Part shown: positions 1 to 64,000 of the stretch, piece by piece
Layout: each line of letters starts with the position of its first letter
Numbering within the stretch: the first letter of the stretch is position 1
Source: Bacteroidales bacterium
Lineage (GTDB): Bacteria; Bacteroidota; Bacteroidia; Bacteroidales; JAGONC01
Assembly: GCA_035342335.1 (NCBI GenBank)
Contig: DAOQWY010000008.1
Span: 21,722 to 85,721, forward strand
Reading direction: 5' to 3'
Length of the DNA: 64,000 bases
The notes under the pieces: model-generated
Database searches by the model: none
The model's input: the letters and a program-made list of their open reading frames with translations, nothing else
What the model was told of the DNA's origin: nothing
Made by a program: the position numbers and the translations under genes

Positions 1-668
1 TCAAGCCGGAATTTGAAAAACCCATCGACGCGGCAACCTATGAGGTCACTATCCAGCTTTTTGAGAAACAGATGCAGATACTTCACCCCTTCATGCCCTT
101 CATCACCGAAGAGATCTGGCACCGGTTAAGGGACCGGGAGGAAACGGATTGCATCATGGTGTCGAGGGTGCCATCGCGAAAACGGATCAATCACAAAATT
201 CTTCAACGTTTTGATGATGAACGGGATGTTATCATCGCCCTGCGAAGTGTCCGAAAAGAAAAAAAGATACCCCAGAAACAGGCACTGGAGTTGTCGGTAA
301 AGAAGAACTTCGGTGAAGAGCCCATCACAGCTTTTGATCCCATTATCTGTAAACTGTGTAATCTTACCGGAATAAGCTATGTTGACGAAAAACCTTCCAA
401 TGCCCTTTCCTTCATCATACGATCCACTGAGTTTTACATTCCATTCTCCTCTGCTTCCGTTGATTCTGCGGCCGAGATTCAAAAATTGGAGGAAGAACGT
501 AGTTATCAGCTGGGATTTCTGGAAGGGGTGGACCGAAAACTCAGCAACGAAAGGTTTGTCAGCAGTGCACCCTCTGCAGTGGTGGAAAAGGAGCGCAGGA
601 AGAAAGCCGATGCCGAAGCCCGCATCAAGGTGATCGAGGAACAGCTGGCGTTGCTGAGAAGAGATTAA
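1..668 (+). CDS. valS: Valyl-tRNA synthetase, C-terminal part (truncated at window start)
   Basis: Frame is open from position 3 (KPEFEKPID...). LHPFMPFITEEIW anticodon-binding motif and C-terminal coiled coil KLSNERFVSSAPSAVVEKE. Confidence 0.96.
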   Translation, partial: KPEFEKPIDAATYEVTIQLFEKQMQILHPFMPFITEEIWHRLRDREETDCIMVSRVPSRKRINHKILQRFDDERDVIIALRSVRKEKKIPQKQALELSVKKNFGEEPITAFDPIICKLCNLTGISYVDEKPSNALSFIIRSTEFYIPFSSASVDSAAEIQKLEEERSYQLGFLEGVDRKLSNERFVSSAPSAVVEKERRKKADAEARIKVIEEQLALLRRD

Positions 669-14097: not shown

Positions 14098-14132
14098 GTT
14101 ACCATTCTTTGCGGGCACAGGTGGTCGTTTTG

Positions 14133-14224
14133 CAGAGAGGGCAGGGATCGAACCTGCCACAGCCGGTTTTATCCGCCTGTCATTGGTTTTGAAGACCAAC
14201 TGGAACACCAGTCCCGACCTCTCT
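14133..14224 (-). tRNA. selC: tRNA-Sec (anticodon UCA)
   Basis: Acceptor AGAGAGG/CCTCTCT with discriminator G; D arm GGGAC-TGGT-GTTCC; anticodon arm GTTGGT-CTTCAAA-ACCAAT; long variable arm ACAG.CGG-ATAAAA-CCG.CTGT; T arm GCAGG-TTCGATC-CCTGC. Directly upstream of selA. Confidence 0.93.
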
Positions 14225-55166: not shown

Positions 55167-55179
55167 GGTTGTTCGTGTT

Positions 55180-55275
55180 ACAGGTTCACAGGTCTACAGG
55201 TCTACAGGTCTACAGGTCTACAGGTCTACAGGTCTACAGGTTCACAGGTCTACAGGTCTACAGGTCTACAGGTTG
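55180..55275. repeat. Octamer tandem repeat, 12 units (ACAGGTCT with ACAGGTTC/ACAGGTTG variants)
   Basis: Counted directly: nine ACAGGTCT, two ACAGGTTC and one ACAGGTTG. Followed by a heptamer tract (about 55283-55340). Confidence 0.95.
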
Positions 55276-55318
55276 ATGAAGGATTTCATTTTACATATTT
55301 CATTTTACATATTTCATC

Positions 55319-56080
55319 CTACATCCTACATCCTATATTCTTCATTTTAACGATCATCACGCTCGATTCCATATCGGGTACAGACACCAGGCTTTCCGGG
55401 ATGTTTTGGATGAACTCATCCACTGCCCGCACGGCGCCTTCCCACTTATGGTTGTAGTCGTGAACGATGATGACGCCGCCGGGTGACAGCCTCGGATAAA
55501 AAAAGGCAAGGCCTGCCGCGATGGGCTGATACAGGTCCGCATCGATCGAAACAAATGCAAAGGTCTCCTCTTCCAGACCTGTTGCCGTATCAGGGAAATA
55601 CCCCGGATGAAAAACGATGTTTTCGTTGCCCCCGATCTTGTTCCTGACTTTTTCCAGTCGCGTGTCGGAAAACCGCTCCGGAGAATAAGTGGCCGCCTCG
55701 CCCGTTTCACCTTTCAGGTCCGACGCGGGGAATCCTTCGAAGGTGTCGAACAGGTGCAGTGTCCGTGATGGCGCCATCCAGTGAATGATCCGCGCTGTTT
55801 CACCCTTGTACACGCCGAGTTCGGCAAACGCACCCGGAACGTTCTCCTTTTTCATCCGTTCGGTCTGGAACCAGAAATTGAAAAAACGGACTTTATCGGG
55901 AGTCTGTTTTTCGATCTTTTGCAGCTCCCGGGAAACGGATTTCATTTTCACGGAATGCTTCCAGGCTACGGGCTGGTAATCCGTGTCAAAGAAGGATCCC
56001 CAGATATGACGGATCAGGAAGATGAATATGATCAGGATGATGACCAGCTGGAGGATCTGAAAAAGAAGGCGCCCGTCCAT
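55319..56080 (-). CDS. TylF/MycF-family O-methyltransferase
   Basis: GAFAELGVYKG, LFDTFEGF, GYFPDT, SIDADLY, GGVIIVHDY. Confidence 0.9.
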   Translation of the reverse strand: MDGRLLFQILQLVIILIIFIFLIRHIWGSFFDTDYQPVAWKHSVKMKSVSRELQKIEKQTPDKVRFFNFWFQTERMKKENVPGAFAELGVYKGETARIIHWMAPSRTLHLFDTFEGFPASDLKGETGEAATYSPERFSDTRLEKVRNKIGGNENIVFHPGYFPDTATGLEEETFAFVSIDADLYQPIAAGLAFFYPRLSPGGVIIVHDYNHKWEGAVRAVDEFIQNIPESLVSVPDMESSVMIVKMKNIGCRM

Positions 56081-57561: not shown

Positions 57562-57631
57562 AATTGTCGATTGTCAATTTAAAATTGTCAATTGACAATC
57601 GAAAATTGACAATTGACAATTACCATTTGCC
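57562..57631. repeat. Palindromic heptamer tandem tract (AATTGTC/AATTGAC)
   Basis: Ten heptamer units forming an imperfect inverted repeat centred on GTCAATTGAC (57587-57596). Confidence 0.85.
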
Positions 57632-58839: not shown

Positions 58840-58857
58840 CGCAGATATACGATGAAA

Positions 58858-58913
58858 TGATTAACCGATATCGGATATCGGATTTAAATCCAAAATCAAA
58901 TATCGGTTAATCA
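58858..58913. repeat. 14-bp perfect inverted repeat downstream of tRNA-Ala
   Basis: TGATTAACCGATAT (58858-58871) and ATATCGGTTAATCA (58900-58913). Confidence 0.8.
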
Positions 58914-59008
58914 GTTAATCGGATATCAATATCTACCGGAGAACCCTGTTGATAAATTTTGCTTTTCCGCGTTGCGCAGCGATTTGCCATCGTCATAATA
59001 TTTTTCCC

Positions 59009-59578
59009 ATGAAAAACGAAGACATGCTTTCCCTTTCGAAGATCATCCTTGCGCCGTGGATACAAAAAGCCACAGCGCTGATAGGCGTGTCACGCAAAGT
59101 GGGAGGGAACCAGTTCAGGCACGCCATGGCCACCATGGCCATCATCCTCGACTACAAGATACTGGATCCTGTATTGCTCAAAGCTTCCGTCATTCACGAC
59201 CTGCTGGAAGATGTACAGGATACCGATCAGCGGGCACTCCGGTTCATTGACGAGGATGGCCCTGCAGTGGTGGAACTTGTGCTGGAAGTAACGCGCAATC
59301 CCTGTGAGAAAAAGGAGGTGTTCCTGGAAAGGTTGCTCACCCAGGGAAGTGACCGGGCCAAGCTGCTCAAGTCGGCCGACCGCATCAGCAATTTGCTGGA
59401 TCTGCACCTGACCATCTACGACCCTGAACGATATGAGCGCCATATCAACCAGACCATTACCTATGTCCTGCCGATGGCCTGGCAGGTGAACCGGGATATG
59501 GCCCACGAGATGATCGACCTGATCAACATCCGTTCGAGGAATCTGGGATTACCCGAGATCGAGAATCCGTTCAGTTAA
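59009..59578 (+). CDS. Stand-alone HD-domain protein, RelA/SpoT hydrolase (SAH/Mesh1)-like
   Basis: RKVGGNQFRH, ASVIHDLLED, VLEVT, KSADRISNL. Confidence 0.8.
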   Translation: MKNEDMLSLSKIILAPWIQKATALIGVSRKVGGNQFRHAMATMAIILDYKILDPVLLKASVIHDLLEDVQDTDQRALRFIDEDGPAVVELVLEVTRNPCEKKEVFLERLLTQGSDRAKLLKSADRISNLLDLHLTIYDPERYERHINQTITYVLPMAWQVNRDMAHEMIDLINIRSRNLGLPEIENPFS

Positions 59579-59976
59579 CCGTTGACGATCATCAGGGTAG
59601 GAGGCGAGATGTAATTTCAGACATCATCACAGGAAGCCGGGAGATGTTGCTTTTTAGTCAGCTGTTGAAAGGCCATTGCTGATTTTTTTAGCAAGAGGAA
59701 TAACGAGCTAAAAATTTTGTTTACGAACAATATTCCTGATCATGCCCCTGAAAAATAATATTTCCTTCTTTTATTTACTTTTAGTTTCTTTCGTTTTCTT
59801 ATATCATGTTAATTATCAATGATATAAAAATTTGACTAAAAGCAAAATTTTACATCCGAAAGTAATAAATTCGCAAAAAACTTTAAACCATATTTAAACC
59901 AGACATGCAATTCACGTATATTTGTTTTCATTTTTAAAATAAAAAGAGTATAAATAATTTGTAAAAATTTGCTTCC

Positions 59977-61195: not shown

Positions 61196-61499
61196 AAAAA
61201 ATTTTCTTGCATTTTGTCCTGTGCTTATCATGATGTTATTCAGCATGTTAAATTAAATCCTGATTTCTTTCTGAAAATCTCGGTGAGTTTTGTCGGCAAC
61301 TTAAATTTCTCTTACTGTACCGGATGCTCAATACTTTACTATTTCCAAATAAATCTTGTTGCATTTTGTCTGTAACTTATGTCACTGTATATCTGTATAT
61401 TAGATTCACCCCCTATTATTCCTTGAAAATCACGGTGCATTTTGTCCCTGACTTAAATCCCTGTTTATCTTCATATTAAGTTAAAAATGAATTTTTTAT
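61196..61499 (+). repeat. Four degenerate direct repeats with an exact 76-bp period
   Basis: TTTTGTC-N5-CTTA begins at 61212, 61288, 61364 and 61440. Confidence 0.85.
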
Positions 61500-61509
61500 A
61501 AAAATTAAA

Positions 61510-61538
61510 ATGCTGTTAAACAGCATCTTATTTTTTTT
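61510..61538 (+). terminator. Possible intrinsic terminator after the repeat array
   Basis: ATGCTGTT-A-AACAGCAT inverted repeat followed by CTTA and a T8 run. Confidence 0.5.
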
Positions 61539-61646
61539 CATTTGTCCTCTGAATGCTTTTCGTTGCTTTTGCTTGTCCTTTTTTGCCCAATAGTACTCCA
61601 ATAGTTTTGCTTCCATAATCTTTTTAATTCATTAAAATCTGACAAA

Positions 61647-61961
61647 ATGGAAGTAATTACAATTGAATCCAAGGCTTTTCTTGAGCTTATGAAGAAGCTC
61701 GAAGAAATTGAGACCAGAGTCACCGAAACCGGCCAATCTGATCCAGAGATCCTTCAGGGTAAAAAAGGAACCAAAGAGGCATGGCTTGATAATGATGATG
61801 CATGCCATTTATTAAGAGTCAGTAAGAGGACCCTGCAGAACTACCGTGACAATGGAACCCTGCCCTTTTCCAAGTTTGGCAATAAGATCTATTACAAGGC
61901 CGCTGACATCGAAAAGCACCTGAATAAACACTATGTCAGAGGCTTCAGGACGGCTCGATAA
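61647..61961 (+). CDS. HTH_17 / MerR-like excisionase-family DNA-binding protein
   Basis: MEVITIES...WLDNDDACHLLRVSKRTLQNYRDNG.LPFSK.GNKIYYK. Confidence 0.9.
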   Translation: MEVITIESKAFLELMKKLEEIETRVTETGQSDPEILQGKKGTKEAWLDNDDACHLLRVSKRTLQNYRDNGTLPFSKFGNKIYYKAADIEKHLNKHYVRGFRTAR

Positions 61962-61989: not shown

Positions 61990-64000
61990 ATGACTGCATC
62001 TTATTGCGAACAGCGATTATCTGAGCTTGGAATCGCCCCTGAACACAATCAGATCCCTCTGGAATACGATAGCGAACGGCAGATAATCTATGGATACTCG
62101 CCTCAGCAGGCCACATTCTTTCAGAGTGACCGGAAAGATAATATCAGGATCAACTATGTGACGTTGGAGGGGAATCTGGCAGACTTTGAGAACCAGGGCA
62201 AGCTGCAGGATTATTACCGTACCAGGATCCACCCGGACTTAGTCAAGGGGGATGCCAAATACATGAGCCCTAAAGGATCGAAAAGCTGCTTCTTTTATCC
62301 CCCTCTCATTATTAAATCATTCAGGGAACATCTGCCGCTTCATACCCTGGGTGTCGTGGAAGGAGAGTTCAAGGCTTTTAAAGCCTGTCTGCACGAAATT
62401 CCGGTTGCAGGTATCCAGGGGATCCACAATTTCAAAGACCGGGAAACGCTGGATCTGCCTGAAGACTTCAAAGATCTCATTAAGCGCTGCCAGGTCCGCA
62501 ACCTGATATTCCTGATGGATGCGGATTGCATTTCGGAAAAGTACGTGCAGAACAATTACCCCAGCAAAGACCTGTTCATCCGGCTGAACTCTTTTTATAC
62601 GGCTGTCAGGGCGTTCAGGGAGTTGAGCAAGGAATTTGAAATGGATGTGTACCTGGCCCATATCCGGGCAGAGTTTGAAGAAACGGCCAAGGGACTGGAT
62701 GATCTGCTGGTCCTGATGAATGGCAGGGAACAGCTGGTCAGGGAGGATTTGATGGCATTGACCAGGGCAAAGGATTTCTTTGAGATCATGAATATCTCCG
62801 ATTTCTCTCTGTTCAAAATTAAAACTCATTTCCTGCTCAGTGAAGATAAGAAGGGGCGGCCCGTTCTATTCTACGACCGGTTTAAGCATATCCTCGGGGA
62901 AGAGCCCTTCACGTTCAAATTCAGAAAATGGCAATACAAGGGGGGAGATCTGATGAACCTGGACGGTAATACGACTACTATAACAACTAAACCTGGGGGT
63001 GATTTCGTGTTTCGAAAGGATCTCCAGTTCTGGCAGGAAAAATCGACTAAATCAGGAGATAATTACCTGATTGATTATAAGTTTGATTATTACAATGCCT
63101 ATCAATTTTTAACAGCCAATAATTTTTACCGGTTTCGTAGGATCGGCAAGGAAAAGGACAAGGATTATGTATATGTGAGGATTGAAAATAAGATTCTCAC
63201 AGAAGTACTTCCCTATATGATGAGGGATTTCCTTGTAAGCTTCGTGAAGACCCTGAATAAGAAAGACCTTCTCAATATGATTTATAAAGGATGTGGCCAG
63301 TACCTCAATGAACCATCTCTTTCAAATATCGACCTGATCCAACTCGACATTGTCAGAAGCGGACCCGATTTTCAATATATGTTTTTCAACAATTTTGTCT
63401 GGAAAGTATCCAGTAATGAAATTGAGCAAATCCCTTATGATTCTTTTGAGGGCTATATCTGGAGGGAGAACGTCATAAATTTTTCACCGACACTCGTGGA
63501 GCCATTATTTAATGTGGACTTCGAAAGCGAAAAATTCCATCTTTCCATCAATGACGATCATGATTCTCATTTTCTCAGGTTTCTTTTAAATACCAGCCGG
63601 ATGTACCATAAAGTCGAAAACAGCATGTTAACCAATGAAATGAAATACGAGGAGGTTGTTCATTTTTTGAATAAAATCTCAGCCATTGGTTACCTGCTGC
63701 ACAATTTCAGGAATGACAGCCGGACATGGGCGGTTGTGGCCATGGACAACAGTATCTCAGAAGTAGGTGAAAGCAATGGAGGAACCGGTAAATCGTTGCT
63801 GGGATTTGCTTTTGATGAGGTCTGCAAAAGTATCTACATTGAGGGAAAATCCAAAAAACTGACAGACAATCCACATATCTGGGCTCTGGTAAATGAGCGT
63901 TCAGATATGATCTTTATTGACGATGTACGAATGGATGTTGATTTTGAATTCTTTTATACCGTAATCACCGGTAAGGTTAGTGTGAATCAAAAGAACATTC
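61990..64000 (+). CDS. Primase-helicase fusion (DUF3854/TOPRIM-like plus P-loop NTPase), truncated at window end and absent from the ORF track
   Basis: Translated by hand from ATG 61990: KYMSPKG, VVEGEFKA, GIQG, LMDAD, KGLDD (TOPRIM); later GGTGKS (Walker A) and IFIDD (Walker B). No stop seen before 64000. Confidence 0.85.
   Translation, partial: MTASYCEQRLSELGIAPEHNQIPLEYDSERQIIYGYSPQQATFFQSDRKDNIRINYVTLEGNLADFENQGKLQDYYRTRIHPDLVKGDAKYMSPKGSKSCFFYPPLIIKSFREHLPLHTLGVVEGEFKAFKACLHEIPVAGIQGIHNFKDRETLDLPEDFKDLIKRCQVRNLIFLMDADCISEKYVQNNYPSKDLFIRLNSFYTAVRAFRELSKEFEMDVYLAHIRAEFEETAKGLDDLLVLMNGREQLVREDLMALTRAKDFFEIMNISDFSLFKIKTHFLLSEDKKGRPVLFYDRFKHILGEEPFTFKFRKWQYKGGDLMNLDGNTTTITTKPGGDFVFRKDLQFWQEKSTKSGDNYLIDYKFDYYNAYQFLTANNFYRFRRIGKEKDKDYVYVRIENKILTEVLPYMMRDFLVSFVKTLNKKDLLNMIYKGCGQYLNEPSLSNIDLIQLDIVRSGPDFQYMFFNNFVWKVSSNEIEQIPYDSFEGYIWRENVINFSPTLVEPLFNVDFESEKFHLSINDDHDSHFLRFLLNTSRMYHKVENSMLTNEMKYEEVVHFLNKISAIGYLLHNFRNDSRTWAVVAMDNSISEVGESNGGTGKSLLGFAFDEVCKSIYIEGKSKKLTDNPHIWALVNERSDMIFIDDVRMDVDFEFFYTVITGKVSVNQKNI

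Follow-up and report, generated by a model that had tools for sequence, protein, structure and literature searches.

A spaced box array between the integrase and excisionase genes of a Bacteroidales island, probably a variant operator region

What is the function of the repeat array that occupies the gap between an integrase gene (int) and an excisionase-like gene (xis) in this Bacteroidales island? An earlier note on this DNA had offered three readings: an iteron-like origin for the primase-helicase, an array of integrase-arm and DNA-bending sites, or a repeat-structured RNA. We analysed the whole 64,000-nucleotide stretch (the window) together with the rest of its genome (G000) and related islands. 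The array is real, selected and narrowly distributed, and it is most likely a variant operator region. A set of protein-binding sites was the best supported part of the earlier proposals, whereas the origin and arm-site readings were weakened and the RNA reading was left unsupported.

Anatomy of the array

Four copies of TTTTGTC-N5-CTTA, at 61212, 61288, 61364 and 61440, were confirmed in the window with a period of exactly 76 bp. When at most one mismatch was allowed, the window contained seven matches; shuffled sequences averaged 0.96, and not one of 100 had as many as seven. The exact motif has one further copy in the 3.4-Mb genome, and a unit HMM searched genome-wide recovered only the array's own four units. 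Constant-period four-copy arrays of comparable strength were present at 12 places in the 3.4 Mb. The 76-bp period of the array was not among the calls of Tandem Repeats Finder.

The array consists of four tandem copies of a roughly 48-bp unit (Table 1), with its boxes located 200–430 bp upstream of xis and all on one strand. Each unit contains a 12-bp box A (consensus TTGCATTTTGTC), six loose bases and a 27-bp imperfect dyad segment with the pattern TTA-N5-CTG-N5-CAG-N5-TAA. The conserved TG steps within the unit, at −7, 0 and +19, are off a 10-bp phase. Dyad symmetry gave p 0.004 with a hand-picked fifth copy and p 0.17 for units 1–4 alone; because its significance depends on the fifth copy, it is tentative. 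The closing hairpin with its T run, which had been described before, is indeed present at 61510–61536. It is terminator-like on both strands and is possibly a weak terminator; the hairpin region showed 77% identity to 61225–61250, the dyad of unit 1 (repeat family D9).

A 152-bp higher-order repeat of alternating units had also been proposed. Autocorrelation was in its favour (0.59 at 152 bp, 0.51 at 76 bp), but the alternation was weak, and units 1, 3 and 4 grouped together. The pairwise identities, out of 76 positions, were 33 (units 1 and 2), 47 (1 and 3), 45 (1 and 4), 36 (2 and 3), 43 (2 and 4) and 50 (3 and 4), indicating that unit 2 is an outlier rather than part of a 152-bp alternation. 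The unit interiors were less variable than had been thought: units 1, 3 and 4 share 34–39 of 65 non-core positions, compared with about 20 by chance. The suggested resemblance to IHF-type sites was not borne out, as the array contained no match to the IHF consensus WATCAANNNNTTR.

Three further candidates were tried and rejected. Tandem promoters were discarded because TTTG-19..21-TAnnTTTG fits no unit consistently; small peptides starting at the minus-strand ATG of box A, because unit 2 lacks the ATG and the frames differ between alleles; and dif/Xer sites, because the units do not have the 11-6-11 layout and the XerD-like words elsewhere in the genome are unrelated.

Table 1. Features of the island, in window coordinates unless another contig or locus is named.
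Feature	Position	Strand	Remarks
attL core / left junction of island	59740..59752	+	identity with G004:C8 starts here
10-bp-phased TG(C/T) run	59834..59881	−	adjoins arm motif; likely excisionase site in att arm
Tandem TTTAAACC-N3-TTTAAACC, candidate arm-type sites	59882..59900	+	upstream of related integrases
Tyrosine integrase, 399 aa	59977..61176	+	PF17293, PF13102, PF00589
Unit 1	61207..61253	+	box A 61207–61218; imperfect dyad 61225–61251; perfect 7-bp inner arms in L006
Unit 2	61283..61329	+	variant box A 61283–61294; dyad decayed; same variant box in G004:C5 allele
Unit 3	61359..61405	+	box A 61359–61370; dyad segment 61377–61403
Unit 4	61435..61481	+	box A 61435–61446; dyad segment 61453–61479
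Hairpin and T run	61505..61538	+	fifth unit dyad, box-less, 52 bp past the dyad of unit 4
Five TG(C/T) repeats, 10–11-bp phase	61541..61588	+	likely excisionase operator
TAGTTTTG, predicted Bacteroidota −7 element of xis-primase operon	61602..61609	+	consensus match
Inverted near-copy of box A over xis start codon	61638..61652	−	TTGTC at −6, other strand
Excisionase-like winged-HTH protein, 104 aa	61647..61961	+	PF12728 (HTH_17); PHROG excisionase families
Primase-helicase, 873 aa	61990..64000	+	ORF runs beyond window end
AGTACAA cluster, SaPI-like origin candidate	G000:C8 87243–87472; L379 9290–9515; L381 2575–2815		first location just beyond window end

Conservation and distribution of the boxes

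We compared the array with two islands of genome G004. The G004:C8 island, from the same genus, is 97.7% identical across the int-xis gap. The G004:C5 island (locus L008) is more distant, with 71% identity in the integrase and 83% in the excisionase; its allele has three boxes at spacings of 56 and 78 bp, and a GC-rich insert replaces unit 1. Over units 3 and 4, the window and G004:C5 are identical at 23 of 24 box A positions and 30 of 38 positions of the +15 to +33 segment, compared with 24 of 54 in the linkers (+34 to +60). By unit, these figures were 12/12 and 13/19 for unit 3, and 11/12 and 17/19 for unit 4. The third codon positions of xis were kept at 66 of 105. The identical columns are conserved among the units as well as between the alleles.

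Contigs with the three-box allele were also found in runs of two further studies (X6 and X11), which gave no contig with the window-type array. Among the 19 differences listed for L008 1091–1272, one hits box A (40 of 144 differences shown), and the three-box contigs contain one insertion offset by one deletion between units 3 and 4 (12 of 16 gaps shown). Judged from these alignments, which cover two truly diverged alleles from one genus, selection acts on the boxes but has not preserved the 76-bp period, since the box sequence was kept while the spacing became 56 and 78 bp. These spacings do not support the earlier idea of selection on geometry; 76 bp corresponds to 7.2 helical turns, so adjacent boxes lie off one face of the DNA. 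The 20-bp loss of spacing in G004:C5 is about two helical turns, in a single case.

The GC-rich insert (L008 1300–1495) sits between int and the first box. Part of it (1395–1465) resembles a small mobile repeat in that many unrelated contigs contain it. In one X11 contig, 34 other letters replace 113 bp of the insert.

The box A array was present at at least 4 of 189 loci listed, two being the same DNA, and box A was not found downstream of integrases of at most 50% identity among the 185 loci listed. A two-box pattern occurred in one of 401 genomes of the order, which was the island's own genome (G004 was outside that draw), and a box-plus-CTGT pattern in two of eight genomes of the family. 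No relatives were found among the viral contigs scanned with the integrase, primase and excisionase, and the viral contigs that matched the array pattern had no adjoining island proteins. Searches of plasmids and phages by blastn returned only short AT-rich pieces, and no comparable array emerged when 74 regions upstream of xis were scanned for spaced 11-mer repeats. We found no description of such an array in the literature covered, which was mostly outside subscription journals and consisted of main texts. This narrow distribution limits the general importance of the array.

Candidate sites elsewhere on the island

The conserved core of the island is about 6.3 kb, and no right end of the island could be located on the contig. 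The insertion point in the window is likely a secondary site. Left of 59749, the contigs of three of four runs continue into a tRNA-Val fragment, and two sister islands in G004 occupy the anticodon loops of tRNA-Val(CAC) and tRNA-Val(GAC). At 59562–59749 of the window, the 3' end of an HD-domain gene no longer matches three relatives beyond 59562; the next 186 bp, up to the island, are different sequence. The DNA that follows the gene in the relatives is non-adjacent in G000, suggesting a rearrangement at the left junction. By gene content, the island cargo is defence-like: G000:C8 86482–104464 carries an AbiEi-like gene (no intact partner ORF was seen), an ion-transport protein, a GmrSD-type nuclease and DruE-like and DrmD-like helicases, followed by RadC copies. 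No relaxase was found among the 17 ORFs scanned.

The arm domain of the integrase is identical at 65 of 90 positions between the alleles. Tandem TTTAAACC was found upstream of six of the seven integrases with at least 45% identity, 3 of 70 at 35–45% and 1 of 100 below 35%, and TTTAAACC-N3-TTTAAAC recurs near two tRNA-Val genes of G000. The latter sequence is likely the arm motif of the integrase. It is absent from the array, in which the best single-site match had two mismatches and no tandem was seen. Its placement, at the att end and outside the array, weakened the arm-site reading. Conversely, box A was sought at the element end, and no full box A was present in the att arm. The TG[CT] offsets in the att arm were 6, 27 and 37 in the window and L006, and 6, 17, 23, 27 and 37 in L008. 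In G000, the tandem arm-like motif lies about 90 bp from two intact tRNA-Val genes, at G000:C43 2841–3005 and G000:C27 15185–15348; these places are probably scars or far ends of related islands.

An alignment-based model of the primase-helicase reached pLDDT 90 (a single-sequence model, at pLDDT 31, was unusable), and its best Foldseek match was the SaPI5 primase-helicase 7ola (E 6e-10). In this model, the island primase folds like SaPI Rep/PriRep. The available part of the SaPI report places 6–12 iterons just downstream of rep, opposed about an AT-rich centre (PMC9371898). Similarly, 6–9 copies of AGTACAA in both orientations cluster downstream of the primase-helicase in all three islands. 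Clusters of at least five copies were found downstream at 11 of 20 primase loci and upstream at 1 of 20; three of these loci belong to this island family, and without them the counts were 8 and 1 of 17. One downstream cluster is a coding repeat, and one locus was dropped as its contig ends inside the gene. The motifs downstream of other primase homologues include TGTAACA (11–13 copies), GCTACAA (9 copies) and GCACTAA (7 copies).

The SaPI layout, as far as that part of the report describes it, thus belongs to the downstream cluster, whereas the array is upstream of rep, with boxes that are one-directional and widely spaced (PMC9371898). Given the downstream iteron clusters and the SaPI-like fold, the array is unlikely to be a replication origin, which weakens the earlier suggestion that it serves the primase-helicase in that way. 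The primase-helicase itself is a mosaic: residues 51–300 are 90–100% identical per block to the G004:C5 protein and 74–82% to P0121, and the C-terminal part has the reverse pattern (window 61990–64000, P0121, P0122, L381).

The HTH and wing residues of the excisionase (55–67 and 74–93) were invariant in eight of eight aligned relatives. The phased TG(C/T) run just upstream of the predicted −7 element has offsets of 11, 22, 32, 42 and 52, identical in all three islands examined (window, L006 and L008), and two of its five repeats contain the TTGTCC core of box A. The Bacteroidota −7 promoter consensus is TAnnTTTG, and TTTGCTTCCATAA-like stretches were found upstream of other xis homologues. In the 480 bp before xis, TTGTC occurs seven times, whereas 500 shuffles averaged 1.5 copies and never exceeded 5. 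The inverted box A at the xis start matches 11 of 12 positions in the window and L006, and 9 of 12 in L008.

Among 72 other xis homologues, 13 had multi-copy short motifs upstream at p≤0.05; as this figure comes from the more favourable of two tests, with a loose threshold, about 5–7 would be expected by chance alone, and the count is only modestly above chance. Neither GGACA nor GACAA showed enrichment before 71 other xis homologues (z 0.8 and 0.3). On other islands, element-specific multi-copy motifs (GGTCTC, GGGTAC and GGGACC) lie upstream of small HTH genes (L409 4940–5190, L410 5090–5230 and L408 5715–5850). The leader at window 61599–61660 can pair back onto the xis start codon (z −1.4); if the predicted promoter is right, this fold would form only in read-through transcripts.

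The operator reading and its alternatives

The array very probably has some DNA-binding role. Because the TTGTC core is common to box A and the phased run at the xis promoter, the best reading is an operator bound by the excisionase. We tentatively propose that the array consists of duplicated operator units bound by the island's own excisionase. In its favour, other motifs elsewhere fill the origin and arm-site roles, the units share no RNA fold, and the HTH and wing of the excisionase are invariant across the alleles while the integrase arm domain is not.

On this proposal, one unit would have been duplicated several times inside the int-xis gap, after which unit 2 and the fifth copy would have decayed. 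The even spacing would then reflect the length of the duplication, with no required geometry. The copies of box A may act as high-affinity sites at which the winged-HTH excisionase nucleates, to spread head-to-tail from there and bend or loop the DNA; such spreading would damp its own promoter as well as read-through from int. The array could also soak up low levels of excisionase, so that excision and the start of replication would occur only above a threshold. The dyad may be a site for another, dimeric protein.

Related proteins provide a partial precedent. Like RdfS of Mesorhizobium ICEMlSymR7A and Streptomyces BldC, as described in the accessible part of one report, the excisionase belongs to the PF12728 family and has an extra N-terminal segment before the HTH, and phased short repeats are found at the att arm and at the promoter of its own gene (PMC11963761). 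According to the same part of that report, RdfS binds attP and its own promoter with one protomer per 10 bp, its sites have no consensus and about 40 bp are covered; BldC recognises direct repeats of 9 bp and assembles into filaments (PMC11963761). Unlike the RdfS sites described there, the present array has a strict 12-bp box every 56–78 bp over 300 bp, with an imperfect dyad after each box. The near-invariant 12-bp box A is stricter than RdfS-type sites, which counts against the excisionase, as do the TG steps off the 10-bp phase, the absence of box A from the att arm and the lack of enrichment of its core before other xis genes. The primase iteron motif is likewise identical between the alleles, so invariance by itself does not point to the excisionase. 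The gene order, in which a tyrosine integrase that targets tRNA genes precedes a small excisionase with separate promoter control, resembles that of NBU1, Tn4555 and CTnDOT in the portions of the reports available (PMC5704250, PMC3809561). Unlike those elements as portrayed there, this island has a spaced array, and neither a relaxase (17 ORFs scanned) nor RteC (four genomes of the genus) was found.

How small Bacteroidota islands with an integrase, an excisionase and a SaPI-like primase-helicase are switched on has been little studied, and candidate arm sites, excisionase sites, promoter and origin are now mapped on the 6.3-kb core. If the excisionase binds the array, it would be an operator of threshold type with widely spaced sites, in contrast to the usual 10-bp filaments; involvement of RNA or the integrase would make the array a new control device.

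Phage P4 has the iteron regions ori1 and crr, and crr is a model for a different role of the boxes. Like P4, the present island is satellite-like, with an integrase, a small excisionase-regulator, a fused primase-helicase and repeats outside the main origin; unlike in P4, box A differs from the island's iteron, and the search for a conserved RNA structure was negative. The boxes might be secondary sites for the primase-helicase (Rep), forming an accessory replication or copy-control region that cooperates with the downstream origin. This is conceivable because the opposite strand of box A (GGACAAAATG) is similar to the iteron core (GTACAAAAT), and one origin cluster contains an in-phase AGGACAA/AGGATAA variant. 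Furthermore, the C-terminal two-thirds of the primase track the array allele (84–100% identity per block to the G004:C8 type and 48–96% to G004:C5), and an AT-rich stretch follows unit 4 (80–88% A+T at 61457–61537). However, none of the 11 box A copies has the AGT of the iteron, G004:C5 preserves little of the AT-rich stretch, clusters at primase loci lay downstream far more often than upstream in the counts given above, and the boxes point one way, whereas SaPI iterons are opposed round an AT-rich centre downstream of rep in the part of the account available (PMC9371898). We consider this role unlikely.

A transcript of the array offers a second alternative. In this scheme, read-through RNA from int would end at the hairpin, and each single-stranded box A would pair with the xis start and block its translation, for which the antisense RNAs P4 CI and P1 C4 are models. 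Box A is complementary to the window xis start at 11 of 12 bases, with duplex energies of −10.9 to −14.9 kcal/mol and shuffle p 0.02–0.07 for the four window units. The array shares the strand of int and has a terminator-like hairpin at its end, and the whole int-xis gap folds with z −2.2. In G004:C5, however, the xis start differs and box A is uncompensated (p 0.58, 0.007 and 0.31 for its three units), and the hairpin loses flanking pairs. Every ATG-type box retains the same G-G mismatch, and the match to the xis start was spotted post hoc, A-rich start contexts being common among homologues. No shared fold emerged: unit fold z-scores ranged from −1.75 to +0.76, RNAalifold gave 0 consensus pairs, and Rfam had no match to the array at E≤1. 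These results do not support the structured repeat RNA once suggested, and pairing of box A with the xis start is quite unlikely.

Two proposals of equally low probability involve other DNA-binding proteins. In the first, which we regard as distinctly improbable, each dyad would be a non-recombining, att-derived mimic of the core site that sequesters the integrase or lets it repress the operon. Among 43 tRNAs, the att-containing tRNA-Val(CAC) gave the best match to the 25 bp that follow box A, in each case at the stretch next to the crossover (shuffle p 0.03 for the window and 0.0035 for L006), and unit 4 of G004:C5 matches its own tRNA-Val(GAC) in the same register. However, the tRNA test was post hoc on non-independent units, and G004:C5 overall ranks its own tRNA 16th of 43. 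The dyad profile places att sites in the top 0.4–9% of genome positions, as the best of several offsets, and the unit HMM misses att sites. In addition, the symmetric register has a 9-bp spacer, compared with the 7-bp overlap that the available part of the source gives as typical of this integrase class (bioRxiv 10.1101/2023.11.06.565760).

In the second, given the same small chance, the boxes would bind an RteC-like activator or repressor from outside the island, supplied by a helper element or the host. The available passages of the reports state that mobilizable islands need helper regulators for excisionase expression (PMC5704250) and that RteC binds upstream of the CTnDOT excision promoter (PMC3809561), and a strict 12-bp box fits a specific transcription factor. 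However, RteC was not found in four of four genomes of the genus, no host promoter is marked by the motif (the best host matches are intragenic), and the boxes are far from xis, 200–430 bp upstream.

A very improbable combination, built on the sequence matches of box A and dyad, would have the int transcript end in a repeat RNA whose boxes are antisense to the xis start and whose other part mimics the tRNA attachment core, silencing excision and maybe addressing the integrase. If true, it would be a multi-unit RNA control device new for tyrosine-recombinase islands. Least likely of all is a neutral, decaying and functionless tandem duplication, which the unconserved period, the insert in place of unit 1 in G004:C5 and the confinement to a narrow island family would fit, but which is opposed by the retention of box A (23/24) compared with linkers (44%) and xis third codon positions, and by the conservation of the same columns among units and between alleles.

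Other repeats and a tRNA call were noted outside the island core. Short-period intergenic repeats lie at window 55179–55335, 57562–57621 and 58840–58931 (8-bp units in 12 copies, 7-bp and 14-bp units). A palindromic repeat that follows tRNA-Ala has further copies elsewhere in the genus. A tRNA-SeC was called at window 14132–14224 (minus strand) in this Bacteroidales genome.
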